Of a DNA stretch of 64,000 bases, positions 2,121 to 64,000 are shown piece by piece; positions within the stretch are counted from its first letter, which is position 1, and each line of letters opens with the position of its first letter. Source of the stretch: a virus. Lineage: Duplodnaviria; Caudoviricetes. The DNA lies in the IMG/VR virus record IMGVR_UViG_3300012952_003952, positions 32,001 to 96,000 of that record. One strand, written 5' to 3'. A model generated the notes under the pieces. That model saw only the letters and a program-made list of their open reading frames with translations, was not told where the DNA came from and ran no database searches. A program made the translations under genes and the position numbers.

Positions 2121-2250
2121 CCAATAATTTATCTTTCTTATATTTAAACATAGAAAAGTGCATAATTAAGGGTGGAATGTGGCCTCTCGAACAAATAATC
2201 TCTTCGGAAGAGAGACTAAAAAAGAAAAAAAGAAAAAGAAGGATGTGACT

Positions 2251-3354
2251 ATGCCAATAGATCCAAAAGAAGAAAACCAAGAAGAACAAGTAGACGACAC
2301 CTATATCAATGCTCCAGATGCTGGAGATGATTTTGATTTTGTCATGGCTTATGATGATGATCCAGCTGAAGCTGATGAAAGACTGCTTCCTGATAACTCT
2401 GTTAGATCTGCTATATCTTGCGGGTTTATTGGAGTAGGCGGTGGCGGTGGAAAGCTAGCAAAAGCTTTCTTAGATCTTGGGTTCAATAAAACTATTTTAG
2501 TTAACACTACTCAGAAAGATCAACCTGGCGGATTAGACCCTTCTCATTTTGTCTTGGTTCCAGGCGCAGACGGAGTAGGAAAAGATATTACTCTTGGTAA
2601 AAAAGTCCTTCAAGAAAATAGTGCTTTTGTTGAAGACGCAGTTCGAACTAGACTTGGACAAGTAGACTGGCTTTTTGTCTGCGCTGGAGGAGGGGGAGGT
2701 ACCGGAAGTGCTAGCCATGAGCTGCACGGATCTCTTAGCCGTTATCTGTCTTCTATAGAGTCTAGCGGAAAGGTTGTCTACATAGTAACAAAGCCCACTG
2801 CACAAGAGATGCTAAATCCAACTATATCTAAAAATTACAAGTCTCTTATCGAAGATGTTAAAACCGTTCCCCACATTATTATTGATAATGAAAAACAGCT
2901 ACAGTTGTTAAGAGGAAAGGTCGGAATGATGAACATGTTCCCTGCAGCTAATAAGAATTTTGCCAAACTATTGTCGCAAGTTTTAAAATTAGCTGATGAA
3001 CACACTGACATCCAAACTTTTGACACTAAAGATCTAGAAAAATGTCTAAGTACCGATGGTAGAATAGTAGTCGGCAGTACTGTAGTAAGAGACGTTACTA
3101 GAAATGATCTTGGATCTCTAGTATATCAAGGTTGCTTAAGATCATCTCCATGTCCAAAACCTACAGGAAACGCAGCTACCGGAACGCTACTGCTAGTTGT
3201 AGATGGTCACATGGCTTCTGATCCGGATGTAAGTAGAAGACTAGAGTCTGCTTTTTCTTATGTTGGAGGAAGAGCTAGCACGTTGTTCTCTGGGGTCTAT
3301 GTGAAAGAGGGAATTCCAGGCCTCATTGCAATAACAATACTTGGTGGACTATAA
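2251..3354 (+). CDS. Tubulin/FtsZ-family GTPase (PhuZ/TubZ-like) with an acidic N-terminal extension
   Basis: GFIGVGGGGGK (T1), GADGVGKD, tubulin signature GGGGGTGS, IIIDNE, and T7-loop-like TFDTKD. The ORF track starts at GTG 2179; ATG 2251 has SD AAGGA 7 nt upstream. Confidence 0.9.
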   Translation: MPIDPKEENQEEQVDDTYINAPDAGDDFDFVMAYDDDPAEADERLLPDNSVRSAISCGFIGVGGGGGKLAKAFLDLGFNKTILVNTTQKDQPGGLDPSHFVLVPGADGVGKDITLGKKVLQENSAFVEDAVRTRLGQVDWLFVCAGGGGGTGSASHELHGSLSRYLSSIESSGKVVYIVTKPTAQEMLNPTISKNYKSLIEDVKTVPHIIIDNEKQLQLLRGKVGMMNMFPAANKNFAKLLSQVLKLADEHTDIQTFDTKDLEKCLSTDGRIVVGSTVVRDVTRNDLGSLVYQGCLRSSPCPKPTGNAATGTLLLVVDGHMASDPDVSRRLESAFSYVGGRASTLFSGVYVKEGIPGLIAITILGGL

Positions 3355-5774: not shown

Positions 5775-8700
5775 ATGGCATCCGATTTTAGAGCAGAAAG
5801 AACAAGAACAAACAGTATTATTTCTAGCGGCAGTTCACCAACGACTAAGCCGTTATTTTCGCTTTATCACTCCACTTCTGCGACTAACTTTACTGGTGGC
5901 ACAGCCACTGGACTTTTTGATGGTGTTGGTACTGATGTATACTCATTCTTTTCAGGATCTAAAGACCATAAAAATGTTTTAGGTTCTCGCGGGGTGACGC
6001 TATTTGGTGGAGATGTTGTAATATCTGGTACTCTTTACGCAGATAAACAAGTAATAGAAATAGACGAAACAGTAACTGGAAGCCTTACCGTTTCTGGCTC
6101 TCTTGTAGTTTCTCAAAGTATAGAAGCCGGCCAACACTTACACATAAATTCTTCTGGTGGCCCTTTTGGATACGCAAACTTTGGATCGGTAGCTTTGGCT
6201 TCTGGTTATGGTTTTAGAGCTGCTGGTGGTACGATGCAGTTCAAGAATACTGGCGGCGCATGGACCGCTATAGGAACTGGTACCGGAGGAAGCTCACTTT
6301 GGATGACAGGATCTGCCGGAGCAGTGACCGGTGGTGGAACATTACTCAACTGGGTATCTACTACTGGATCGATAGCAGTATCAGGATCTTATTTAGACCT
6401 TCACGGCTATATTCGAGAAATCGGTTACCAGACTACTAACTATCATAGGTTTAATAATAACGGGCAGAGCTTTAACGCTGAGGGTGTGAGTATGATGGAA
6501 CTATCATCACTCAGCGGTCAGAAGTTGATTCTGATAAATGCAGCTAACGCGAATGTTGATTTTCGTGTAGATTCTGCAAATAGAGACAAAGCCTTTTATG
6601 TCGATGCTGATTTAGACAGAGTTTCTATACTTTCTGGAGCTTTGAATACTGATGGAGAAGGCATTGATATTGCGTTCTTCGTATCTGGATCTAAGGGTGG
6701 AAAAGACGGAAAAGATCGAGGAGTCTCTCTCTTCGGCGGCGACTTAGTAACTTCAGGAACAGTTATTTCTAGAGGTGCTAACGGCGGCGCAATTACTGGT
6801 TCTATAACCAGAACTTCCGATGGTAAATCTTATATTGCCGCCGGCGCAAATATTACTATTACTTCTGGATCAGATGGACAGATATTAATTGCAGGCGCAG
6901 CAGGTGCAGCTCCTGAATGGACAGATGGCGGTGGCTTGACCGGTCCTCTTTACCCAGCCGGAAACAGTGGTGTACAAAATGTCGTTATTGGCGGTACAGG
7001 TTTAGCTAGCGCAGACATATTGCTTGGTAGCGCTGGGTCTGCAGAGTTTAACAAACAAGCTGGCGCCGGACAAGAATTTGTAGTTAGTACAGTTGGTAGA
7101 GGTTCTGCCATTCACGTTAAATCTTCGGATAATACCGTAGATATTCTATCCGGATCTGGGGTCACTGGTGGAGATGGCGCAGATGTTGCATTCTTCGTAT
7201 CTGGCTCTGTTTCAGGTAAAGACGGAAAAGATCGAGGAGTAGCAGTATTTGCAGGAGATCTATTAACTTCAGGAGTGCTCTACATAGAGGGAAGCAGAGA
7301 CTACCAAGGCGCGACATCAGCTGCCATAGTTTTAAATGACACACTTCACAGTCGAATAGTCTGGAACTCAGAATCTGATTCTAATACTCCAGATGCACAA
7401 ATCTGGGAGCAGAACGGAGATCTATATTTAAGCGCTTCAGATGAAATTGAATTGCAAAGCAACACTGCAACTTCCATCACCGGTTATGGTGATGTAAGGT
7501 ATGTAGCATTTTCCAGAACAGGCGGCACTCAAAGAAAAGCTATGTTCAATCCTTCGCGAAACGACGTTGACTTTGAGATTGCAAATTCTACAAACTATTA
7601 CGCCTTTAAGGTGGACGCTGCGGAAAACTGGATAAGCATTGATAAATTATCTTCTGAACCAATACCAGGTGTAGATGTTAATTTCTTCGTCTCTGGCTCT
7701 ACAACTGGAAAAGACGGAGCTGAACGTTCAGTATCTGTATTTGGCGGAGATTTAGTAACATCTGGTGTACTCTACGTAGAAGGAAATAGAGATTATCAAG
7801 GTGCAACATCTGCAGCTATTGTTTTAAACAGTGCTTTGCACAGTCGAATAGTCTGGAATTCAGAATCTGACTCCAACACTCCAGATGCACAAATTTGGGA
7901 ACAGGGCGGAAGTTTATACTTAAGCTCTTCAGATAATCTTTGGCTAGAGGCTAAAGATGCAATTCTGTTTGATGGCAATGGCGACAAGCGTTTCTTATCA
8001 ATGGACTCAGTCGGCAGTCAGTGGGGAAGTTATTTCAACATACAAAACAATGATCTAGATTTTAGAATTGGCAATACGACGCACGACAGAGCCTTTACTG
8101 TAGACGCTGCAGAAGGAACTGTAAATATTGATAGGAAAATTTCTGACGCGATCCCAGGCTCTGACGTTAACTTCTTCGTATCTGGATCGACCAAGGCAAG
8201 AGGTACTTCGACTAGGGGGGTTTCAGTATTCGGCGGAGACCTAATAATATCAGGTACTCTTTATGCTGATCGTCAAGTAATTGAGGTAGATGAAGCAGTA
8301 ACAGGAAGCCTCAGTGTATCTGGCTCTCTAGTAGTTTCTCAAAGCGCAACAGTCAACGATACAGTCACAGCATTGCTTGGTTTCTCTGGTTCACTTACTA
8401 GATTAACAGATGCAAGATCTTATATTGCCGCTGGAAGCAACATTACAGTTGCTTCTTCTTCAAATGGCCAAATTGTTATCAGCTCTACAGCTGGTGGAAC
8501 AATGTCTAGCTTCGGCCTTGTTGGAGACACTGGTAGTGCTCAATCCATTACAAATGGAAACAATTTAACGATTGCCGGTGGCACCGGTCTAATAACCACT
8601 GCTAGCGCCACGGACACCCTAACTATAGACTTAGATTACAATGGTACAGACAACTTTATAGATGCAGCTCCGAACTTAGAGGGCACCTCAATTAACGCTT

Positions 8701-11165
8701 CTGATAGTATAGTCTATCACGACCATACCGATGATAACGTTAAGAAAGGCCGGGTATCAGACTTACCATTCGCTTCTTCAGATACTACTTACACAGCTGG
8801 AGACGGCCTAGACCTTTCAGGAACTACATTTAGTACTGACTTAAAGAATGATGGCGGTCTTAAGATTGACTCTACTGAATTAGCGATAGACAATAACATT
8901 GTCGCCACCGTTTCTGGAACTTCATTCACCGGTGGAGTTAGAATAAGTTCTACTAATAATATTGCACCTCCAGTGCTTGGACTATTTGTTCAAGGAACAA
9001 TATCTGGATCTATTCACGAAACGCATGAAGGAAAATCTTACTTAGTTGCCGGTACCAACGTAACAATAGCTTCGTCCTCCAACGGTCAAGTAACAATTAG
9101 CTCTACCGCTGGTGGAACGGTTGATGGATCGGGAGTAGCAAATAGGGTCGCATATTGGTCTGACTCAGATACATTGACATCAGATGCTGACTTAACATTC
9201 GACGGAACCGACTTAGGTGTCGGTAACAAGATATTCCACGTAGGCGACGACAACACATTCATTTATTTTAACGATGATGACATAAATATCTCAGTCGGTG
9301 GCGTCAACATGGTTGACTTTACTGAGAACGCTGGATCGCAAGACGAAATAACTTTTAATGAAGCTGGTGCAGATCTTGACTTTAGAGTTGAATCAGATGA
9401 TAATCCCCACATGTTCTTTATCAATGCAAACGATAATAGAATCAGCATCGGTACTCAAGGAAATACTCCTGAAACTGTCGTTCATATTAAAGACACCTCT
9501 CCTGAAGTTAGAATACAGAGAGCCTTAAACGGACAGGACTCTACAATTAGTTTTGCTGGAGCAGCTGGAGTTCGTGGAAGCATGACCGGCCTCCAAGGCG
9601 GAACCAACGATATAGTTTTTGACACTTTTAACAGCACTACGCTGGAAGAAATAGCTAGATTTGGTGGCTTATATACCGGTGGTCCTTCCGGAAGACAAGT
9701 TATATTATTGTCCGGATCTACTATGCATGCTGGAGCAATGCAGCCTAGAGAAGCTTCTGATATCGCGTTCTTCGTGTCCGGTGCAATTAGCTCTAGAGGT
9801 TCTTCTACTTTAGGGGCCTCAGTATTTGGTGGCGATAATGTAATATCAGGAAGCTTAACAGTTCTTAACTCCGGAGTTGGTGGTGGTACTATATCTGGTT
9901 CTATTCACGAGACCGAAGATGGAATATCATATCTAATCGCAGGCACCAACGTCAGTATAGTATCTGCCTCAAATGGCCAGGTAACAATTTCTAGCACTGC
10001 CGGTGGTAGCGAATGGACGGATGGTGGATCATTCTTATACCCAACCGACAACTCTGGTGTAGAACATGTAGTTATCGGTGGAAACTCTTTAGTCAATGCT
10101 GATATCTTACTTGGAAGTGCAGGCGGCGCTGAATTTAACAAACAGCGCGCTGCAGCTTCTGATTTTACTGTTTCTACTCAAGATGACCAATACGCTCTCG
10201 TAGTTGATGGCGGCACTAATCAAGTCTGCATACACGATCCTGGGAATGCTACCCCTGGCAACTATGCAGGAGGGGAAGCTTCGTTCTATGTCTCAGGCGC
10301 AATAGGACTTTCTGGAGCTGGAGCTGGAAAAGCTATTTTTGGCGGTGACGCAGTCATAAGTGGTACTCTCCACATAAAAGGAAATTATAACTCAAGTGGA
10401 CCAAGCTCCGACGAAACCAGCTTAAGGCTTGATCATGGAATTGCTTTTGACGACGGAGACTCTTGGATATATGAGAACGGAGATGACTTATGGCTAGTAG
10501 GAAAAGTCGATACTAACTTAAGCGCTTCAGATGATATATTCATTGGATCTGGCGATACAACTTGTCTTACTACTGGTGGAAGCTTCTTAGCTAAGTCTGG
10601 TGGTGAATTAACAAATGGGTTCTTTATAACTGGTACCGACACTTGGATGCACGTTTCAGGAGCAATAGGAGGTCATTGTACATCTGGCTCAGCTGGAATT
10701 GTAAAGAGCACCGTTGCTTTCGGTGGCGATGTTGTAATATCTGGATCAATGAGAGCTAAGCAAATAGAAAATTATCGTGGCTCCTATAATAATGGTTCTA
10801 ATGCAGATCCAGATTACATCCCTCTTGGGCCCAGTGCCTCAGAGTCTTCAGTTGCTGGATATCTTCAGCATTCAGTTATGCCTTTTGCAGGAAGATTGGT
10901 GAAACTGAGTTGGAGACCAGAAAATGCACAACAAAATGCAGTTACTGCAACTGTTTTCAAGGGCGTGGACGGAAATGCCACCCCTGGTATCGGTGGAGAA
11001 TCTGTAACAGTAGCTGGTAAAGCTGGATTCAATACACACTCTTTCCACTTCCAGCAAGCTGTACATTTTAATGAAGGTGATATTTTTGCGATTGAAGTTA
11101 ATCCAGGATCTACGCCTGGAACAGTTACCTTTACAGCTACGTTTGAAATGGACATGTTCATCTAA
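5775..11165 (+). CDS. Giant G/S/T-rich modular virion fibre/adhesin-like protein (1796 aa)
   Basis: Eight FFVSG...F[GA]GD.V.SG modules and four SGSI....G.SY..AG.N.TI.S..NGQ modules. Fibre-like motifs YTAGDGLDLSGTTFS and GSGVANRVAYWSD. C-terminal beta-sandwich-like head. Confidence 0.75.
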   Translation: MASDFRAERTRTNSIISSGSSPTTKPLFSLYHSTSATNFTGGTATGLFDGVGTDVYSFFSGSKDHKNVLGSRGVTLFGGDVVISGTLYADKQVIEIDETVTGSLTVSGSLVVSQSIEAGQHLHINSSGGPFGYANFGSVALASGYGFRAAGGTMQFKNTGGAWTAIGTGTGGSSLWMTGSAGAVTGGGTLLNWVSTTGSIAVSGSYLDLHGYIREIGYQTTNYHRFNNNGQSFNAEGVSMMELSSLSGQKLILINAANANVDFRVDSANRDKAFYVDADLDRVSILSGALNTDGEGIDIAFFVSGSKGGKDGKDRGVSLFGGDLVTSGTVISRGANGGAITGSITRTSDGKSYIAAGANITITSGSDGQILIAGAAGAAPEWTDGGGLTGPLYPAGNSGVQNVVIGGTGLASADILLGSAGSAEFNKQAGAGQEFVVSTVGRGSAIHVKSSDNTVDILSGSGVTGGDGADVAFFVSGSVSGKDGKDRGVAVFAGDLLTSGVLYIEGSRDYQGATSAAIVLNDTLHSRIVWNSESDSNTPDAQIWEQNGDLYLSASDEIELQSNTATSITGYGDVRYVAFSRTGGTQRKAMFNPSRNDVDFEIANSTNYYAFKVDAAENWISIDKLSSEPIPGVDVNFFVSGSTTGKDGAERSVSVFGGDLVTSGVLYVEGNRDYQGATSAAIVLNSALHSRIVWNSESDSNTPDAQIWEQGGSLYLSSSDNLWLEAKDAILFDGNGDKRFLSMDSVGSQWGSYFNIQNNDLDFRIGNTTHDRAFTVDAAEGTVNIDRKISDAIPGSDVNFFVSGSTKARGTSTRGVSVFGGDLIISGTLYADRQVIEVDEAVTGSLSVSGSLVVSQSATVNDTVTALLGFSGSLTRLTDARSYIAAGSNITVASSSNGQIVISSTAGGTMSSFGLVGDTGSAQSITNGNNLTIAGGTGLITTASATDTLTIDLDYNGTDNFIDAAPNLEGTSINASDSIVYHDHTDDNVKKGRVSDLPFASSDTTYTAGDGLDLSGTTFSTDLKNDGGLKIDSTELAIDNNIVATVSGTSFTGGVRISSTNNIAPPVLGLFVQGTISGSIHETHEGKSYLVAGTNVTIASSSNGQVTISSTAGGTVDGSGVANRVAYWSDSDTLTSDADLTFDGTDLGVGNKIFHVGDDNTFIYFNDDDINISVGGVNMVDFTENAGSQDEITFNEAGADLDFRVESDDNPHMFFINANDNRISIGTQGNTPETVVHIKDTSPEVRIQRALNGQDSTISFAGAAGVRGSMTGLQGGTNDIVFDTFNSTTLEEIARFGGLYTGGPSGRQVILLSGSTMHAGAMQPREASDIAFFVSGAISSRGSSTLGASVFGGDNVISGSLTVLNSGVGGGTISGSIHETEDGISYLIAGTNVSIVSASNGQVTISSTAGGSEWTDGGSFLYPTDNSGVEHVVIGGNSLVNADILLGSAGGAEFNKQRAAASDFTVSTQDDQYALVVDGGTNQVCIHDPGNATPGNYAGGEASFYVSGAIGLSGAGAGKAIFGGDAVISGTLHIKGNYNSSGPSSDETSLRLDHGIAFDDGDSWIYENGDDLWLVGKVDTNLSASDDIFIGSGDTTCLTTGGSFLAKSGGELTNGFFITGTDTWMHVSGAIGGHCTSGSAGIVKSTVAFGGDVVISGSMRAKQIENYRGSYNNGSNADPDYIPLGPSASESSVAGYLQHSVMPFAGRLVKLSWRPENAQQNAVTATVFKGVDGNATPGIGGESVTVAGKAGFNTHSFHFQQAVHFNEGDIFAIEVNPGSTPGTVTFTATFEMDMFI
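7297..7900 (+). repeat. Internal direct duplication in the fibre gene (7297-7408 vs 7789-7900, 492-bp period)
   Basis: Both copies encode RDYQGATSAAIVLN..LHSRIVWNSESDSNTPDAQIWE; mismatches are mostly synonymous. A 23-bp repeat AAAGACGGAAAAGATCGAGGAGT also occurs at 6702 and 7218. Confidence 0.9.
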
Positions 11166-11396
11166 TACAGAACAGATAATCTGTAATCTACAGTCTATAA
11201 TATAAAGAATAAAGAATATATTCTACAGTTATAGATTAATCAGTATCAGTATCAGTCAGTATCAGTAATTCAGTAGAACAGTATTATAGTACTACAAAAA
11301 AAGACTATTGTACATTATTTTTTTTCTAAATAGTTTTCTATTATCAGCACAGTTATCAGTAAGTGCTCAAGTAGAATAAATCTAGAAGGAAAATTA
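11166..11396. repeat. Intergenic low-complexity CAGT/ATCAGT repeat region (origin/centromere-like)
   Basis: 11 CAGT copies, all on the + strand (11191-11360), with ATCAGT near-tandem at 11239-11266. Palindrome ACAGAT-A-ATCTGT (11172-11184), A- and T-tracts, and no CC/GG/CG until the SD of the next gene. Confidence 0.85.
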
Positions 11397-13343
11397 ATGT
11401 TTGGTAATTCATCGCCTTTTGAACAACCTCAAAAGCCAATTATTCAGATTCCAGCAGACGCTGATATAGTGTTTGTTTCAGACATGTTTGTTGAAGACTA
11501 TGTTGGAGGAGCTGAGTTAACTTCTGAGGCTTTAATAGAATCTTCTCCACTTAAAGTATTTAAGTTGCACAGTAAAGACGTAGATCTTAAATTATTAGAG
11601 CAGGGAGTTTCTAAATACTGGATATTTGGTAATTTTTCTGCTATGACTATGGAGTTAATACCTTCAATCGTAGCTAATATGAATTATTCTATTCTAGAAT
11701 ATGATTATAAATTTTGTAGGTACCGATCTCCTGAAAAACACGAATTCGAAACCGGTGAACCATGCGACTGCAAAGACGATATTCACGGTAAAGTAATTTC
11801 AGCTTTTTATTATGGCGCAAAGTCTTTATGGTGGATGTCAGAAAAGCAGCAAGAAATTTATACTTCAATGTATCCATTTCTAGATGAAAGAGAAAATGTA
11901 GTCCTCAGTAGCGTATTTAGTGATTCTTTCTTTTATGCTGTTAAGATACTGAAAGAAAAATATAAAGATAATGAAAGAAAGGGCTGGTTAGTTTTAGGAT
12001 CTAACAGTTGGATAAAGGGCGCTGACGATGCTGAGAAATGGTGCATCGATAATAACAAAGAGTACGAAGTAGTCTGGAACTTACCTTACGAAGAAATATT
12101 AGAAAAATTAGCTCAGTCTGAAGGTTTTGTTTATCTTCCAAAGGGCAATGATACATGCCCAAGAATGGTTATTGAAGCTAAGTTGCTTGGTTGCGATCTT
12201 GAATTGAATGAGTATGTCCAACATAAAGATGAAATTTGGTTTGACACACAAGATCCATTCGATACAGAAGCTTATCTTTACGCTGCTAGAGAAAGATTTT
12301 GGAATTCAATATTAGCAACAATGAATTATGTGCCAACTATATCAGGATATACCACTACTTTAAATTGCATCAAAAATGGATATCCATACGAAGCCTCAAT
12401 CAAGAGTATGCTTGGATTTTGTCAAGAAGTAATTGTAGTAGACGGTGGCAGTGACGATGGAACTTACGAACGGCTTAGAGAGCTAGAAAAAGAAGATAAT
12501 AGAATCAAGGTCAGTCTAGTTTTAAGAGATTGGAAAGATACAAGATTTGCAGTATATGACGGTTCTCAAAAAGCAGTTTCTAGAGATCAGTGTACCATGG
12601 ACTTTTGCTGGCAACAAGATGCAGACGAAATAGTGCATGAAGAAGACTATAAGAAAATTTTAGACATGGGAAGAAATTTCCCAAGACAATTCGACCTCTT
12701 ATCTTTACCAGTGATAGAATATTGGGGAAGCTCTGAAAAAGTTAGAGCTGACATCAATCCTTGGAAGTGGAGACTTTCTAAAAATAAAGATTACATAACT
12801 CACGGAATTCCAAAACAGCTTCGAAGAACCGATGAAGAAGGTAAGCTATATGCTCTTCCAGGCACTGATGGATGTGATTATATACACAAAGAAACATTTG
12901 AGCCAATACCGCACGCAGGATTTTATAACGAAGACATTCATAAAGTTAAGCTTATGGCTTTCGCTGGTGATGATAATGCATTTTTAGAGTATCAGGGTTG
13001 GTTTAATAGAGTTGTAGATCTTTTGCCAAGCGTACATCATTATTCTTGGATGGACATTGGAAGAAAAATTCGTACTTATAGAGACTACTGGTCTCAACAC
13101 TGGCAAAGTTTGTACGACATCCATCAAGAAGACACTCCAGAAAATAATATGTTTATGAATAAGTCGTGGAAAGACATATCAGAATCAGAAATAGACAAAT
13201 TAGCAGAAAAGCTTGCGCAAGAAATGGGCGGCTGGGTGTTTCATTCTAAAGTAGATTTCGATAATCCAACGCCTCATTTTTCTATAGAAAGAACTCAGCC
13301 AAAATTAGCTATAGAGCACTATATGAAGAAGGAAGAAAAGTGA
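11397..13343 (+). CDS. Bifunctional glycosyltransferase: GT-B (GT4-like) N-domain fused to a GT-A (GT2) C-domain
   Basis: GT-B signature DTCPRMVIEAKLLGC, then GT2 motifs EVIVVDGGSDDGT and WQQDADE. Confidence 0.8.
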   Translation: MFGNSSPFEQPQKPIIQIPADADIVFVSDMFVEDYVGGAELTSEALIESSPLKVFKLHSKDVDLKLLEQGVSKYWIFGNFSAMTMELIPSIVANMNYSILEYDYKFCRYRSPEKHEFETGEPCDCKDDIHGKVISAFYYGAKSLWWMSEKQQEIYTSMYPFLDERENVVLSSVFSDSFFYAVKILKEKYKDNERKGWLVLGSNSWIKGADDAEKWCIDNNKEYEVVWNLPYEEILEKLAQSEGFVYLPKGNDTCPRMVIEAKLLGCDLELNEYVQHKDEIWFDTQDPFDTEAYLYAARERFWNSILATMNYVPTISGYTTTLNCIKNGYPYEASIKSMLGFCQEVIVVDGGSDDGTYERLRELEKEDNRIKVSLVLRDWKDTRFAVYDGSQKAVSRDQCTMDFCWQQDADEIVHEEDYKKILDMGRNFPRQFDLLSLPVIEYWGSSEKVRADINPWKWRLSKNKDYITHGIPKQLRRTDEEGKLYALPGTDGCDYIHKETFEPIPHAGFYNEDIHKVKLMAFAGDDNAFLEYQGWFNRVVDLLPSVHHYSWMDIGRKIRTYRDYWSQHWQSLYDIHQEDTPENNMFMNKSWKDISESEIDKLAEKLAQEMGGWVFHSKVDFDNPTPHFSIERTQPKLAIEHYMKKEEK

Positions 13344-39762: not shown

Positions 39763-40788
39763 ATGACCGATTTACCAAAAGTATCTGTTGGCTTTGTTAA
39801 TTGCAATAGACTTCACTATCTTAAAAGTTGTGTAGAGTCTTTTTTATATTGCACGCAAGAATACAATAACAAAGAACTTATAATCATAGACAATAATTCA
39901 GTAGAAGAAGGCACAGAAGAGTATCTGGCAGAAAAAGAAAGCCAGGGATTTATGATAATACGAAAAGACTATCGAGATCCTTCTAATGAATTTGCCACCG
40001 CGCTAAATGAAATAGTTAAGGTTTCTACTGGAGACTATGTAGCAATACTTCAGGGAGATATGCAATTTATCCTAAAGGGAAAATGGCTTCAAGATTACGT
40101 GTCTTTAATGACAATGCATAGTCTTCAAATTGGATGCATCTCTTTCGATGCGCAAAGAAAAGTAACTCATAACGCAAATCAGCTTTCTACACCAATTACA
40201 ATAAACGAAAAATTTAATTTTGTCGCTGATTTAAGTCGTCCCCCGCTGGCAGGAGCTGCAGACGCTTTCTATTCTAGAGAAGTTTTAGAAAAGATATTTC
40301 CTTGGGAAACTAAAAACTCTAGCCACGAAGGTTCCGATGATTCAGAAACTAAAATGCTCCAAAAAGTAGCAGCGCTAGTTTATAGAAATAAACTTAAATG
40401 GAAAACGATACTCCCAGTTATGCCAGTCGCTGCAGCAATCTATACAGATCCTCGAGGAACTAATGCTAGAGTTAGAGGAAATCGTCGATATGGAGTCTAT
40501 TGGCCTCCAAAATCTGATTTTAGATATTACGAAATTTTAGACTACGATCAATTAGCAGGTGATCAAAAAATGCTCAGGGAAAATCCATGGAGTATTGAAG
40601 AAGTAATTAAGCCGATTGGTTTTCATGCGCCAATAGATCAAAATGGATCTTGGTTAAAGAATCCAATCCGACCAGAAACAGCTCAGCCTGGTGACTGGGT
40701 AGAACTAGACTATTTTGATTATTCTAAAACTGATCCTCTTACGACGAGCGAAGAAGATAAATTTTTAGAAGAATGGCTAAACAGTTAA
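39763..40788 (+). CDS. Glycosyltransferase family 2
   Basis: VSVGFVNCNR..YL..C.ES, IIIDNNS..GT, STGDYV.ILQGD. Confidence 0.8.
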   Translation: MTDLPKVSVGFVNCNRLHYLKSCVESFLYCTQEYNNKELIIIDNNSVEEGTEEYLAEKESQGFMIIRKDYRDPSNEFATALNEIVKVSTGDYVAILQGDMQFILKGKWLQDYVSLMTMHSLQIGCISFDAQRKVTHNANQLSTPITINEKFNFVADLSRPPLAGAADAFYSREVLEKIFPWETKNSSHEGSDDSETKMLQKVAALVYRNKLKWKTILPVMPVAAAIYTDPRGTNARVRGNRRYGVYWPPKSDFRYYEILDYDQLAGDQKMLRENPWSIEEVIKPIGFHAPIDQNGSWLKNPIRPETAQPGDWVELDYFDYSKTDPLTTSEEDKFLEEWLNS

Positions 40789-44200: not shown

Positions 44201-45022
44201 ATGAGTTTTCCAACCGAAAAGCCGCATATTTCTTATTCAGAAGTCAAGAATTGGAAAGAATGCCCATACAGACATAAGCTAGCCTATATAGACAAGATTG
44301 ATTTAGGATCTCCTTCTCCTTATTTAGATTTTGGAACTAACGTCCACGAAGGATGTGAAAGTTTTTTAAATAGTGGGACCATCCCTAGAGAAAAACTTTT
44401 AACCAATATTAGAGACGCTTGGAAAAAGCACGGATTCGACAACCCAGAATGGTATGAAAAAATGCCAAAATGGTATAAGCACGTTCCAGTAGATGAATGG
44501 TGCGAATGGGCTTCTAATATGTGGGATGATGTTCCAAGCTTTTTAGATAAAGAATTTCCAGGTTGGGAGCGCGTTAGTGCTGAAGAAATGCTTTATGAAG
44601 AAATAGAAAATCATGACGTGAAATTCAAGGGTTTCATAGATGCTATTATTAAAGTGCCTAGAAAAAATGGGACATACAAATACTGGATTATTGATTGGAA
44701 AACTGCAAAATCTTATGGCTGGGATAAACGTAAAAGCCGTGATTTTATGATGCAAGCCCAACTTGTTTTGTATAAACATTATTGGGCAACTAAAAATAAT
44801 ATTCCATTCAAAGATGTTGGTTGCGCTTTTGTGCTTTTAAAACGAGGCGGAAAACCAGGAAATATGTGCGGAATACTAAAAGTTTCAGCCGGTCCAAAAG
44901 CGCTAGAACAAGCTAACAAGATGGTTAATAGCATGATAAAAAACGTGTACAGAGGATTTTTTGTTAAAAATAGAATGAGCTGTACTTTTTGCGATTACAA
45001 AGATACAGAGCATTGTACTTAA
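44201..45022 (+). CDS. PD-(D/E)XK nuclease, Cas4/AddB-like with an Fe-S staple
   Basis: ISYS....W..CP, FKGFIDAII...IIDWKT, QL..Y, C-terminal CTFCDY....C. Confidence 0.88.
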   Translation: MSFPTEKPHISYSEVKNWKECPYRHKLAYIDKIDLGSPSPYLDFGTNVHEGCESFLNSGTIPREKLLTNIRDAWKKHGFDNPEWYEKMPKWYKHVPVDEWCEWASNMWDDVPSFLDKEFPGWERVSAEEMLYEEIENHDVKFKGFIDAIIKVPRKNGTYKYWIIDWKTAKSYGWDKRKSRDFMMQAQLVLYKHYWATKNNIPFKDVGCAFVLLKRGGKPGNMCGILKVSAGPKALEQANKMVNSMIKNVYRGFFVKNRMSCTFCDYKDTEHCT

Positions 45023-58629: not shown

Positions 58630-61400
58630 TGCCAAGTTCTGTTTATCCTCCGATGTCAGCTTCATACAGCTACATACAGGGGCACAACGTTAAGAATTAC
58701 GAAATATTTTCTCAGCGCTTGATTGGAGTGTTAGGAAGAAGCGATAGATCTAAAATGGTGTCAATGACGTCTCACAAGTACGTTACTCCGTTCGGCACCG
58801 ATGTAACTGGTTCTAAAATAATAAACCAAACATCTGATTCTTATTTTGACGATTCTTTATATCAGCAAGGTGGAGTAACTGTATTCGAGGGCTTGGGCAC
58901 TCAACAGTTTGCAGTTGCGACGATAACAATCTTATCAGGTGCCGCTTGGCAATCTGATGGATATGTAGACATTAGATTATATGACACTAACGTGTCTGGC
59001 TCCTGGACAGAAGGTTATATAAGCGCTTACGGAACAGGGCCCCAAGACTTAACAGCGATGACCGGATCTACAGTTGATTGGGATACACAATTAATTGCAG
59101 ATTCTGATGGAGCTGGATTTGCCGGAGGAATGAGGTTTTGGGGACTTAGAGAAGTCAGTACGTCCATAGATTCAGACCCTAGATTTAATCCATATTTTTA
59201 CTTAACTGGAAGTGTACTTCGCCGAGAAGATTTAACTAGTGGAACAGAATATGAAAAAACCGCAGTAATAGCAGCGCACCAAAATATTACTGGCTCGAGA
59301 ATTATAGCGTTAAACTTATATCAAAAAATTAGCCGGTCTTTAAATGACCCCTTATCTCCATTTCATACGCTTCCTCTTCATGTTAGCCTAAGTGGAGTAA
59401 GTGCTTCTTCAGACCCTTCTACACAGTATCTAGGGAGCACTATTACGCTTTCGGTTTCTAAAGAAGGAAAAGAAACAGACCCATCTCTTAACTCCGGCCT
59501 TTCGCCATGGTTAACCGGCTCTATGATGCGGTTTAACATAGGCGTTACTTCCAGTTACGCTCCATATAATATCCAAGTTTCATCTGCTCCAGCTGGATAC
59601 AAGACATTAAGTTTTTCTTCTAATATCGGTTTACCATCTTGGTCTGAATCTAGCGGTTCTTTGAAGATGCTGCCACAATACAATTTAGAAAGAAACAATT
59701 TTGGCTATTCAGAATCTCAAACGTTCACACCTTTCGTCGACAAGACTACTCTTTTAGGGTTTGGAGCTAGCACAAGTGGAAAAGATAATCTTCATCTTGA
59801 CCTGCAAGAATATGTTCCATACTATCGTTCAGTAGTAGACCCAGTCACTGGAGAGACGACTACTGAACCTTGGACCATCACTGATCGATGGCGCGGCCTG
59901 GATGGAGATCCTCATATCTCCCACCGGCCTGTTTTAGCCCGCATGGCTGGTTTTGCATCTGCTCCGCCTAACCCCGGAGCCGCGGTGACAGGCTTCAGCC
60001 GCAGAACAAGGGTTATGACAGGGTCTGCAAATCCTTTTCACCTCGGATTATTTTATACAGTTAATCAATTTATTTCTGGGGCTGAAATAAATTATGGAAC
60101 TAAAGACAAGCCAAAATACAAATACACTGAGGGTTTAAGGTGGATCGATGGTGATTATGACATTGAAAATCTTGACGGAATAAGCTATGGACAGGCGACT
60201 CAGTTTGACATGAATGGAGTTATAGAGCCTTTAGATATTAGAAAAGAAATAACTGGAGACCATTTATGTATAGGCGATTTTTACGATCCAATACATAATA
60301 CACTCAAGGGGACTCTTAGTTCTACCGATAGAGTTTTAAATCATCTTGGAATAACGCAACCTATTGGCGAAACTTATAATATTGTAAAAGATACTAAAAT
60401 CACTCCATTTGAATACATTGATAATGGCGCAGACATATATGGTTTACATCTTACCGTACCTCCACTAGCAGTTCAAACTCCAAAAACTATAGAGTGGACT
60501 TTTAATCGCAAGTTTGATTTGAGGGAAGCTAGCGTCTCTGGTGATATTTCAGATGAAGATTTGGAAACTATTTCACGAGACTATGATTGGGTTGAAACGA
60601 TGACATCAAACCCGCCAAGATTTGTCTTGCAAGAAGGAAAACATAATACTCCGACCGGATATGAATATACCAATCTCGGCTACATGAGACCGCTTTCATT
60701 GGAAGACTTCAACGACTATGAAGATCCATATGCTTTCGGATTTTTTCCAGTGGGCACAAGCTACTCTTTCAAAGCCGATTCTGGACTAGTCGATCCAGAG
60801 GTTATAGCTTGGCACGCTAAACAAGCAATAAATAGTTCGAGCCTCGGCCAATATTTAACAGCTTCTCTTGGCTCGCAATATAGAAGTTCTAATACCGTTT
60901 ATATTACACCAGTCACAGCTTCTAGTGGTTGGAATGATAACATACACTTGAGGAACCCTGCAGATGATCTCTTTGGGTTTGATAAATGGGCTTTTACTGA
61001 AAAAGCAAGAAGTAAATCCATTGGAGGGTCTTTTCTAGACTATTCTCCATATCTAAACTTAGATGACCTTTCAGCTAATCCAGACCCCTTTTATGAAACA
61101 GAGTCTAATTCAGAGTATTTAGAAACGCTAACAAGATCTACTGATAAAGAGCTTCAATATGTTATAGCTGCAAAGCGTGAACTCTATAACTCTGTAAAAA
61201 TATTTCAAGCTTCCGGTTACGATAGTGCCACACCTTGGGATTGCACTTACTTCCTCGGCACAGTTTATTTTCGTAATGAACGTATTTTTGATGATCCAAA
61301 ACCATTTTCAAGTCATGAAAAATCAACTCCAAAAGGAATTGTTTATGAAAACACAATTTTTGGATATGATTCAGTAGTATATGGAGGTTACAAAAAATGA
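58629..61400 (+). CDS. Large hypothetical structural protein (S/T/G-rich)
   Basis: 923 aa, translationally coupled within the baseplate operon. Confidence 0.6.
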   Translation: MPSSVYPPMSASYSYIQGHNVKNYEIFSQRLIGVLGRSDRSKMVSMTSHKYVTPFGTDVTGSKIINQTSDSYFDDSLYQQGGVTVFEGLGTQQFAVATITILSGAAWQSDGYVDIRLYDTNVSGSWTEGYISAYGTGPQDLTAMTGSTVDWDTQLIADSDGAGFAGGMRFWGLREVSTSIDSDPRFNPYFYLTGSVLRREDLTSGTEYEKTAVIAAHQNITGSRIIALNLYQKISRSLNDPLSPFHTLPLHVSLSGVSASSDPSTQYLGSTITLSVSKEGKETDPSLNSGLSPWLTGSMMRFNIGVTSSYAPYNIQVSSAPAGYKTLSFSSNIGLPSWSESSGSLKMLPQYNLERNNFGYSESQTFTPFVDKTTLLGFGASTSGKDNLHLDLQEYVPYYRSVVDPVTGETTTEPWTITDRWRGLDGDPHISHRPVLARMAGFASAPPNPGAAVTGFSRRTRVMTGSANPFHLGLFYTVNQFISGAEINYGTKDKPKYKYTEGLRWIDGDYDIENLDGISYGQATQFDMNGVIEPLDIRKEITGDHLCIGDFYDPIHNTLKGTLSSTDRVLNHLGITQPIGETYNIVKDTKITPFEYIDNGADIYGLHLTVPPLAVQTPKTIEWTFNRKFDLREASVSGDISDEDLETISRDYDWVETMTSNPPRFVLQEGKHNTPTGYEYTNLGYMRPLSLEDFNDYEDPYAFGFFPVGTSYSFKADSGLVDPEVIAWHAKQAINSSSLGQYLTASLGSQYRSSNTVYITPVTASSGWNDNIHLRNPADDLFGFDKWAFTEKARSKSIGGSFLDYSPYLNLDDLSANPDPFYETESNSEYLETLTRSTDKELQYVIAAKRELYNSVKIFQASGYDSATPWDCTYFLGTVYFRNERIFDDPKPFSSHEKSTPKGIVYENTIFGYDSVVYGGYKK

Positions 61401-64000
61401 AAAGAGATTTTAGAACCTCGGAAGTTCCAGACTTAAATGAAAACTTCAGAAACTACAATAGCGGAACTAGTCTTTTAGCTTATTATAAATTTTCTCAATA
61501 TGATACTACCACTAATCAAGTGGCAGACTTTTGCAAAGATACCAGCATAGATCCCCTAACATACGAATCGACTGTCTTGTCGCACGCAAAATTAGTAGAA
61601 TCTAATCCATACCAAGGCAGAGCTGACCTAAAGTCGGTATCTTTAAGAAAGGCTCAAAAGCAGTGTTTTAGACTTCCATACGTTACCCTTTCAGAAAGGA
61701 TTGCTTCTAACCAAATACCAATCACCATCGCGGGTTGGGCTCAAATGCCAGACATCTCTGGAGACGGCGACGCAAATCTCGGGATACTCACATCTATTGC
61801 TGCTGGCACAGTTTTTAATACTACTAATGGAAACTTTAAATTTGTGTATGCGCCAGCTACTAAAAAATTCGAATTTGGTCTAGTTTTAACTACTTCTTCT
61901 GCTGGCGTATCTACTATTATCGTTCCGACAGTGTCAATCTTTGATATATCTAAACCTGTTTCGTCTGGCGATTGGTTTCATTTCGCTATTAGGGTAAAAA
62001 GTACGATTGCTACTACTGACGCAACTGGTGCAGATATTGGCGACATTATTTCTATATTCATAAATGGAGAAAATGTTACAGATGCCCCTAGCTGTACCGG
62101 CGGAGATTCGGGAGGAGGCACTAAATTTGCTGGTGCAAATTCATTTATATTAAAATCTACCGATGTTATCGTAGGAAAAGGACCTTCAGACACGACTGCG
62201 GTTGCACAATTTTCTACAATAAACTTTCATGAACTGGCATTTTGGACCTCGGCTTTAGCAGAAGGTGAAATATTATCTCTATATGAAGCTGCAAAAATGT
62301 TTGCAGGTAGTGGTGTTTTAAGCTTACCACCAAAAGTTCAAATAGACAATAGAGAAAACAATACAGTAGTTAATCCAATAGTTTTAGCCAACGTAGACAA
62401 TCTTAATAATGTTACTACCGCTTCTTTTTTTGATGATACGACAGTAAGATTATTCGATTCAACTTCCATAAATTATTCTGCAGGTATACCAAGACACAGT
62501 CGGCTAATTACTGCTTCGGTAGCTTCTCCTAGCCAAGAACCAGATATTTATTTAAACTCAGGATTAAGAGTTCCGAACTCACCTTACGGATGCCCTTCTG
62601 GGTCTTATGTTTTTGGAAATGCTACTATAAATACAGCAGACAGCGAAGCGTTATCTGTCGATTCTACTTATCCTGGAGTTGGAACTCAATATACAGGCGA
62701 TCGCCCATTTACTCAGCAGAGGTACGGAAAAGGTTATAGTTGGGATATTAAAGAATCTCCAGCCCCCTTTCATCCGTTTAATGACACCGAAGTTTTGGAT
62801 GATAGATTTTCTATTTGGAAAGAAGATTCTCTTATTGGGCCCTCATTTGATGTAAACAGAGATAGCCAACACTACTTAGATTATAAATTAGATTTGCCTA
62901 CTACTTCTTCACGTCGAGGCCGGTCTATAATACCGATAACGCTTAAAAATAGTACTATTTTAGATGCTACTAGATACGACGTTTTAAATCAACAAGACCC
63001 CCAAGGGCCTACCGATGCTAGTAATACAGGATTCTATTATTGGAACTGGAAATCAAAACGCTGGAATCAAAAAGGTAATACTATCGAAGATGGTACGACT
63101 GGAGTCTATCACTTCAGGCTTCTCGCTGAAAGATATTATAGGTGGGACTGGAGCACCGGTTCAGCTAGTGTCTTCGGCTATGGTTTCTTCGATTGTCCTT
63201 CCACTCCAAGAAAGCTTGTAGTTTCTTATTCAGACGGAACATCATATTTAGCAGGCCAAACAGGAGGCCAGCAAAGCTATAGAAAATGTTCTCCTGCTTT
63301 TGCTGGATTTGAATCAATTCCCAGGCAGTTTTATCCAGGGCCAAAAGAAACAAATGGTCTTTTTAGAACTTCTTCTTTAATACTAACAGCCAGCTATCCA
63401 GCTTTCCTCACGTCTTCCTTATATGCTGGCCAGCCAATGATGCAATATGGGGCTCCGCAAAACACTACTTATTTTGCTAAAGAGGCGGAAAGACTTAAAC
63501 TCAGCAATTATATTCAAGCCCCCTTTATTTTAGAAAAAGCAATCCTAACTCTCACGGTTGAAGGTAGAAGAACTTATTCTAATAGAGACAGGTTTCCTGC
63601 CAATAGCTACCCTCAAGATGACTACGTATTTTTCCTATACCGACAAGCAACTGTTGGAAACGATATAAAGCAGCAATTGTCTTCTAGCGATCGTTATCTT
63701 ATATGCAGTGGAAATGTTGCAGTATACGCAGAAGATTGTTGGGATTCAGACTCCAGCGGAAGTATAGCGGGAGGAGGAATATTAGGAGTTAAATATAGCG
63801 ATAAATTTGGTCATCTATTTAAACCGGTAAACTCGCCCGCAGTTTCTTTAAAATTGCTTACCGAGGTGACAGGCGGGATCTTTGATCCTGGGAGTCTTAA
63901 AAATTCCAACAGGAACCGGCCATATCCAGCTAGTCACACGGAAGATCGAGCAGCCTTTGAAGTCACCACTGGACAAAAATCTGTAGAAGTTGTAATGACT
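61397..64000 (+). CDS. Large structural protein with an N-terminal LamG-like domain, truncated by the window end (not in the supplied ORF track)
   Basis: ATG 61397 overlaps the upstream TGA. I translated the frame by hand (MKRDFRTSEVPD...DWFHFAIRV...ELAFWTSAL...QKSVEVVMT) and found no stop to 64000. Confidence 0.8.
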   Translation, partial: MKRDFRTSEVPDLNENFRNYNSGTSLLAYYKFSQYDTTTNQVADFCKDTSIDPLTYESTVLSHAKLVESNPYQGRADLKSVSLRKAQKQCFRLPYVTLSERIASNQIPITIAGWAQMPDISGDGDANLGILTSIAAGTVFNTTNGNFKFVYAPATKKFEFGLVLTTSSAGVSTIIVPTVSIFDISKPVSSGDWFHFAIRVKSTIATTDATGADIGDIISIFINGENVTDAPSCTGGDSGGGTKFAGANSFILKSTDVIVGKGPSDTTAVAQFSTINFHELAFWTSALAEGEILSLYEAAKMFAGSGVLSLPPKVQIDNRENNTVVNPIVLANVDNLNNVTTASFFDDTTVRLFDSTSINYSAGIPRHSRLITASVASPSQEPDIYLNSGLRVPNSPYGCPSGSYVFGNATINTADSEALSVDSTYPGVGTQYTGDRPFTQQRYGKGYSWDIKESPAPFHPFNDTEVLDDRFSIWKEDSLIGPSFDVNRDSQHYLDYKLDLPTTSSRRGRSIIPITLKNSTILDATRYDVLNQQDPQGPTDASNTGFYYWNWKSKRWNQKGNTIEDGTTGVYHFRLLAERYYRWDWSTGSASVFGYGFFDCPSTPRKLVVSYSDGTSYLAGQTGGQQSYRKCSPAFAGFESIPRQFYPGPKETNGLFRTSSLILTASYPAFLTSSLYAGQPMMQYGAPQNTTYFAKEAERLKLSNYIQAPFILEKAILTLTVEGRRTYSNRDRFPANSYPQDDYVFFLYRQATVGNDIKQQLSSSDRYLICSGNVAVYAEDCWDSDSSGSIAGGGILGVKYSDKFGHLFKPVNSPAVSLKLLTEVTGGIFDPGSLKNSNRNRPYPASHTEDRAAFEVTTGQKSVEVVMT

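Follow-up and report, generated by a model that had tools for sequence, protein, structure and literature searches.

The gap at positions 11166 to 11396 of the window (the whole stretch of 64,000 nucleotides analysed here, bases 32001–96000 of the 241,978-bp viral contig G000) separates a 1796-aa gene from the first gene of a glycosyltransferase island and raises the question of what, if anything, it does for the phage. The original prediction described it as a region of strand-biased repeats, either a site for initiator binding and unwinding or a tubC-like centromere for a tubulin encoded upstream. The repeats are real, yet they were read too literally, and the best-conserved part of the gap, a bidirectional phage promoter at 11286–11336, was overlooked. 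This promoter of the replication class and a single-copy tract conserved by composition form a real, family-wide element. By analogy with oriF and oriG of phage T4, the two parts, promoter and unwinding tract, are best read as a transcription-primed (R-loop) origin of replication, a reading to which we give an even chance.

The gap is indeed the largest gene-free stretch of the window. Positions 730–1118 are no rival, because a tmRNA occupies them, and 61397–64000 is not gene-free, because one long open reading frame (G000 93397–98790) crosses the edge of the window. The tmRNA is phage-borne (740–1108, ARAGORN) and located directly 3' of an Hc1-like gene (532–729). All repeats listed in the original prediction were recovered: 11 copies of CAGT against none of ACTG, the duplicated TCTACAGT at 11187 and 11222, AAAGAAT at 11204 and 11211, the palindromes ACAGAT-A-ATCTGT at 11172 and TAGTACTA at 11287, and the CAG-TAT triplet series at 11241–11255. 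Tandem copies of ATCAGT are found at 11239–11266. The gap contains neither CC nor CG, the earliest GG is at 11388, and CAG outnumbers CTG by 14 to 1 over its whole length. With respect to CAGT the gap ranks top among the 231-nt windows of the whole 242-kb contig (11 copies, six in the next window), and 11 copies were reached in none of 2000 dinucleotide shuffles (mean 2.8). The triplets with a central A are present as well, but a run of six is matched in 58% of the shuffles, and the special significance attached to them is lost. Both CAGT as a word and its bias to one strand are restricted to the clade (178 CAGT and 176 ACTG in 92 relatives), and the copy number of ATCAGT varies between near relatives; across the family, the strand bias is not conserved.

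The contig G000 stems from a T4-like marine jumbo phage that has a Pol III replisome. Genes on the plus strand cover about 92% of the bases of the contig, and the sequencing runs containing its sequence are marine; no RNA run matching the contig was found among the listed runs. Replisome genes encode Pol III alpha, a DnaB-like helicase, a primase (G000 125124–126083), a gp32-like SSB, RecA and a 5'-3' exonuclease. Pol III alpha was detected in all seven genomes searched and a family-B polymerase in none of the seven, in G000 despite a gp23-type capsid; a profile search with PF03428 (RepC) gave no match. Two gp23-type major capsid genes are arranged in tandem (G000 139110–142965), likewise in G001, and a short protein with a family-A polymerase domain is encoded in addition to Pol III alpha (G000 167050–168249 and 184101–187700). 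The phage also encodes a 5-hmdU kinase helical-domain protein (G000 192680–194134), a C5 cytosine methylase (194134–195312) and a thymidylate synthase-like protein (187736–188584); its DNA may be modified, which could alter true duplex stability and word usage.

Hundreds of metagenomic relatives were found, and cultured phages gave no match to the glycosyltransferase (GT) or tubulin proteins (tblastn). The family is a large one of uncultured, aquatic jumbo phages. Moraphages (PMC12619734) were considered as the same lineage and rejected, since they carry a family-B polymerase. The GT gene of the family also occurs on contigs binned into unrelated bacterial MAGs (L350, NHDW01000006.1; L348, L349 and L351), and one MAG-binned contig of 306 kb also carries the sigma factor and the primase of the phage. 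These contigs are likely mis-binned, and no host can be read from such bins.

Within the gap, the tract of about 120 bp (Table 1) is peculiar in that every G or C is flanked by bases other than G or C. The run without two adjacent G/C is 196 bp long and the sole long one in 242 kb, the next being 80 bp. According to nearest-neighbour energies, the tract is the least stable 150-bp window of G000, G001, G003, G005 and G008 and ranks 11th in G002, and its duplex stability is also below that of GC-matched windows. Relatives were gathered via the GT gene as anchor, which gave 127 non-redundant upstream gaps. The original prediction had named conservation at the syntenic position as a check, and the outcome is mixed: the tract is present in about 80 of the 127 gaps (median 173 nt), accompanying GT genes of 52–100% identity, and is absent at this site in about 48 of 125 relatives (approx. 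40%). The tracts are unalignable beyond close relatives and have composition alone in common: adjacent G/C pairs are halved, AG/CT is raised and CTG/CAG is about 3-fold enriched, equally on both strands. ATG and GTG are 2 to 3.5-fold depleted, both strands alike. Neither a 3-nt nor a helical periodicity was found in the family tracts.

Of 64 held-out gaps, 95% scored as tract, compared to 3% of other AT-rich gaps of equal GC content. In genome scans with a composition model trained without the target genome, the tract site ranks first in G000, G001 (complete, 293 kb), G002, G003, G005 and G008, and the tract occurs once per genome where scanned. The bacterial contig G006:C3, scanned as a negative control, has no tract. 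A strong tract was found nowhere in G004 (257 kb), G006:C5 (306 kb) and G007 (236 kb), none of which is known to be complete. In G007, a short tract with an antisense TGTACA promoter is located at another locus (67625–67725, L452), and the tract is missing before the GT gene; the short tract is possibly a relocated module. An element that is conserved by composition and not by sequence is missed by alignment-based searches.

Table 1. Features of the gap and of the neighbouring genes (window coordinates; a dot marks features without strand)
Feature	Position	Strand	Remarks
Low-stability tract, candidate DNA unwinding element	11166–11285	.	Isolated G/C only, ATCAGT copies, no ATG
−10 box TACTAT, leftward promoter firing into the tract	11286–11291	−	Predicted start near 11280
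Palindromic TGTACA, −35 box common to both divergent promoters	11309–11314	.	Invariant in the close clade
−10 box TAGTTT, rightward promoter of the glycosyltransferase island	11331–11336	+	Promoter-class motif
Probable Shine-Dalgarno sequence GAAGGA	11385–11390	+	Precedes the ATG at 11397; proposed from sequence
Glycosyltransferase-family-2-containing protein, 648 aa	11397–13343	+	First gene of the glycan island; syntenic anchor of the family for the element
Upstream gene, 1796 aa, without family match	5775–11165	+	Length varies among relatives; stop codon bounds the tract
Cys-capped sigma70 region-4.2 protein, 83 aa	3538–3789	−	One of two candidate −35 readers completing the truncated phage sigma

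In close relatives, the best-conserved block of the gap extends from about 11270 to 11345 and does not coincide with the repeats. It contains two divergent promoters with a common −35 box. The leftward one reads TGTACA-N17-TACTAT in G000, and TACTAT is kept in all close relatives at a spacing of 16–17 nt. The rightward one is an ordinary operon promoter. A standard sigma70/terminator scan had missed the promoter, because its −35 box is non-canonical; the same scan detected no intrinsic terminator in the gap. In 34 non-redundant gaps, the spacer of the motif T(G/A)(T/A)ACA-Nx-TAnnnT peaks at x=16 (27 cases) and x=17 (11 cases), with 1.2 expected for each and at most six for any other spacer. 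Intergenic matches lie preferentially on the gene strand, with ratios of gene strand to opposite strand of 14:2 in G000 and 19:4, 15:1, 12:0, 7:4 and 17:8 in five relatives. In G000, the class precedes primase, SSB, recA and the glycosyltransferase island. From these positions and the motif itself we infer that T(G/A)(T/A)ACA-N16/17-TAnnnT is a phage promoter class for replication-stage genes. Other members in G000 are located at 2271, 2543, 8042, 29402, 76164, 125089, 169530, 170503, 213699, 241144 and 241518, and the regulon outlined by the class comprises primase, SSB, recA and a PD-(D/E)XK nuclease (window 44201–45022). The class defines the replication regulon of the family, whether the origin reading is right or wrong. 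Downstream of the leftward promoter, no minus-strand open reading frame is found for 21 kb.

The TG(T/A)ACA box is likely read by a split phage sigma factor with two candidate partners. The phage sigma (G000 219367–220236) ends after region 4.1 in all eight genomes in which it was found. One candidate for the missing part is the 83-aa region-4.2 protein, the gene of which is preceded by its own TGTACA promoter of the same class and which has an invariant TRMRICQ motif in region 4.2, where the compared bacterial sigma has ERVRQIE. The other is encoded by a conserved small HTH gene directly behind the sigma gene (G000 220240–220518). A complex model of sigma and the 83-aa protein scored 0.67 (best control 0.00), a mark met by 58 of 80 solved complexes and two of 110 mismatched pairs; at least 90% of the contacts agreed between runs and the partner had a pLDDT of at least 75. 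The model may have passed because the pair resembles the intact sigma region 4 of solved structures. The presence of two small HTH proteins as region-4.2 candidates suggests exchangeable −35 readers.

Promoter and tract go together across relatives. A class promoter is aimed into the tract in 45 of 79 cases with the strict score (backwards control six) and in 60 of 79 with the relaxed score (control 16), counts that leave out −35 boxes overlapping the GT start codon; in 19 of the 79 tracts there is only a weak inward promoter. Among the strict inward promoters, 32 of 45 are antisense, compared to antisense matches in five of 226 other co-oriented gaps, some such matches coming free because TGTACA is a palindrome. 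Many relatives have a second, separate inverted box 7–12 nt away. A combined score for promoter followed by tract amounts to 33.7 at the site in G000 and to 1.5 at the next of about 158 promoter-like sites; G001, G003 and G005 are similar. In most relatives, the tract precedes the island promoter, and an antisense promoter fires into it; at least 14 have it in the 5' leader instead, behind the sense promoter. On the GT tree, the side of the tract relative to the promoter changed about eight times, and its presence or absence changed 16 times, compared to 38 times with shuffled labels. The constant arrangement is promoter then tract, in either orientation. Such swapping of sides is possible for a DNA module and hardly for an mRNA leader or a terminator.

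A known precedent for this arrangement is found in phage T4, where oriF and oriG, each of about 100 bp, have a middle-mode promoter followed by an A+T-rich unwinding element of replaceable sequence (PMC3016281). The T4 origin transcript forms an R-loop and is trimmed to a primer, and the displaced strand receives helicase and primase (PMC3016281). In a corresponding process here, host RNA polymerase with the phage split sigma would transcribe into the tract when the replication genes are expressed. The predicted leftward RNA, which has no start codon, would stay untranslated and would re-anneal as an R-loop, a fate that an untranslatable RNA would favour. The 5'-3' exonuclease (RNase H-like) would then trim the RNA to a primer for the phage Pol III, and the displaced strand would take up helicase (DnaB-like) and primase. 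Proteobacterial DnaG initiates at CTG and CTA (PMC2978363), and the primase here may likewise find its start sites in the CTG/CAG words, which are in 3-fold excess on both strands. A preference of CTG for the displaced strand holds in this clade and was rejected for the family (104 versus 121). The advantage of an RNA:DNA hybrid on the transcribed strand was not significant either (18 of 44, p=0.11). The skew inflection suggested in the original prediction did not appear: total and fourfold-site GC skew showed no switch at the site in six long genomes, in which coding of about 80–92% of the bases on one strand blunts the test. The depth of the Logan contigs is flat. Among these contigs there was one exact match to 10000–12800, possibly the source sample itself.

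The family does not depend on this tract as its only essential origin, since the three long contigs mentioned above have no strong tract. A competing origin candidate lies 41 kb away (G000 2.1–2.6 kb). This second site (G000 2084–2318, L180:2084–2318; G001 40165–40380) contains noncoding TGTA(A/T)CA repeats before a promoter of the same class, with eight copies within 250 nt in G001 and six near 5.8 kb in G005. For duplex instability it ranks 91st and 103rd at 150 bp, but in G000 it comes first at 60 bp. Both candidates could be real, because T4 has several origins. A bolder scheme is put forward tentatively and is on balance doubtful, namely that a Pol III replisome is started without an initiator protein, the split sigma firing the antisense promoter into a composition-defined tract, with a module free to move sides and timing set by sigma assembly. 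Isolated G/C would lower duplex stability, the missing start codons would exclude ribosomes and the CTG words would be primase sites.

Several other functions have to be weighed against the R-loop origin. The gap could combine a promoter with a transcriptional insulator, in which the leftward promoter and the untranslatable tract stand in for a hairpin terminator and keep transcription of the upstream gene from entering the glycan island, be it through colliding polymerases, factor-dependent termination or an antisense RNA. This would fit the lack of an intrinsic terminator, the depletion of start codons and the more frequent terminator-like hairpins in gaps without the tract (11 of 35, compared to 8 of 74 with it; Fisher p=0.014). 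However, the relatives with the tract in the 5' leader would block their own operon, the word bias is equal on both strands, and an insulator could work without being the least stable duplex of the genome, other operon borders being without such a tract; we regard it as unlikely. Distinctly unlikely is a promoter beside a near-neutral spacer that slippage and local inversion left next to a variable gene and that has no function of its own. Sequences that cannot be aligned except between close relatives, the varying ATCAGT copy number and the loss of the tract in many lineages (the 16 changes on the tree) are what such a spacer would exhibit, but 120–250 bp of peculiar composition are kept once per genome in genomes that are about 95% coding and over the whole range of GT identities, gaps of equal GC do not drift to this composition (3% versus 95%), and the inward promoter is retained. 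A single-copy site for another DNA transaction (pac, concatemer processing or a recombination hot spot, opened by transcription) would be in keeping with one easily melted copy per genome, with a variable gene upstream and a variable glycan island on the other side. Its chance is slim: the element is far from the capsid genes (G000 139–143 kb), does not lie at the ends of the sole terminally repeated record (82 kb of 293 kb in G001) and is joined to a promoter of the replication-gene class, not of a late class. It is highly improbable that the gap encodes a peptide or a small RNA with a defined structure. In the window, the plus strand of the gap folds better than shuffles (z −3.1 to −4), but over the whole family z is only −0.16 when compared with trinucleotide shuffles, the covariation term of the consensus fold is positive (unfavourable), the fold itself largely mirrors the promoter dyad, and no credible Rfam match was obtained, so that a conserved RNA structure was rejected; the longest stop-free frame has 29 codons, and there is no ATG.

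The two mechanisms of the original prediction fared less well than its general idea of an unwinding site, which is in line with the single copy, the low duplex stability and the inward promoter. An origin opened by a protein initiator, be it host DnaA or a phage protein, that binds the repeats as iterons or in the manner of DnaA-trios, is very unlikely. In its favour, TAG/GAT words are mildly biased toward the sense strand, and the reverse complement of the hexamer codes for DTDTDT; elsewhere among viral contigs, 73 of the 80 exact matches lie within coding runs of this kind, some of them presumably in proteins that resemble phage replication initiators. In other viral contigs (L061–L140), the triple ATCAGT repeat is nearly always the antisense of DTDTDT coding, some of it apparently in initiator linkers. 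Against the DnaA-trios, no DnaA gene was found in the seven genomes searched, DnaA boxes had no match in 34 gaps, and NAN runs do not exceed those of shuffles family-wide (mean 5.6 versus 5.4). Against iterons, there is no conserved repeat unit or fixed spacing, and the repeat word is clade-specific. The use of host DnaA is possible in principle, yet the boxes are missing. An oriC with DnaA-trios (PMC10201434) resembles the gap in being AT-rich and easily melted with some TAG/GAT words; it differs in that the gap has neither boxes nor a phage DnaA, nor an in-phase trio run above chance, nor a fixed strand.

The tubC-like centromere for a tubulin/FtsZ-like protein is barely conceivable and largely refuted by lost linkage. 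The tubulin gene is located about 8 kb upstream as predicted (2179–3354, 7.9 kb off) and is near the tract in G000, G001 and G003 (2–8 kb), but it is 80 kb off in G008 and 168 kb in G005 and was not detected in G002; in the five genomes the distances are 1.7, 6.9, 7.9, 80 and 168 kb, and it never follows directly downstream of the tract. The tubC sites known so far immediately precede tubRZ (PMC6009700). Iterons are absent here, since the repeat words differ between clades and lack periodicity. For the 68-aa gene after the tubulin, neither a TubR-like match nor an informative Pfam, PHROG or PDB match was obtained, in searches that small HTH proteins can escape. The best solved relatives of the tubulin are FtsZ proteins, TubZ being marginal; its sequence is nearer to FtsZ than to TubZ/PhuZ, and among relatives the gene is found at widely differing places with respect to the glycan island. 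In common with tubC of prophage c-st and pBtoxis (PMC6009700), the gap is a noncoding region of short direct repeats in a genome with a gene of the tubulin/FtsZ family. In contrast to tubC (PMC6009700), it is not upstream of a tubR-tubZ operon, is unlinked in some relatives and has no conserved iteron, and no TubR was found.

To our knowledge, the origins of large phages with Pol III replisomes are mostly unmapped, and no description of this element or of replication origins in this phage family was found in the literature. The element offers a concrete single-copy origin candidate of 170 bp with about 80 natural variants and a defined promoter. Its predicted promoter reader resembles the two-subunit sigmas T4 gp55/gp33, SPO1 gp33/34, SigO-RsoA and Tn916 Sig7-8 (bioRxiv 10.64898/2026.10.01.756105) in combining a truncated sigma with separate small HTH proteins; unlike in these systems, the phage sigma is split inside region 4 and has two candidate partners. 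With T4 oriF/oriG (PMC3016281), the element shares a length of about 100–150 bp, a promoter of the replication-gene class followed by an A+T-rich unwinding element, copies without common sequence and the possibility of several origins per genome; both phages have a gp23-type capsid and a gp32-like SSB. The differences concern the promoter, the replisome and the tract. A MotA profile, searched without a positive control, had no match in seven genomes, and in place of a MotA box there is TG(T/A)ACA at −35 spacing, probably read by the split sigma. The promoter is often bidirectional, its inward copy being antisense and without an open reading frame. T4 replicates with the family-B polymerase gp43, whereas the phage described here lacks such an enzyme and has Pol III alpha and a DnaB-like helicase. 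The tract has a distinctive conserved composition with isolated G/C and a CTG/CAG excess, and its R-loop is putative. By this analogy, the element probably works like a T4 R-loop origin without being a strict member of that class, with a different polymerase and a different promoter reader.
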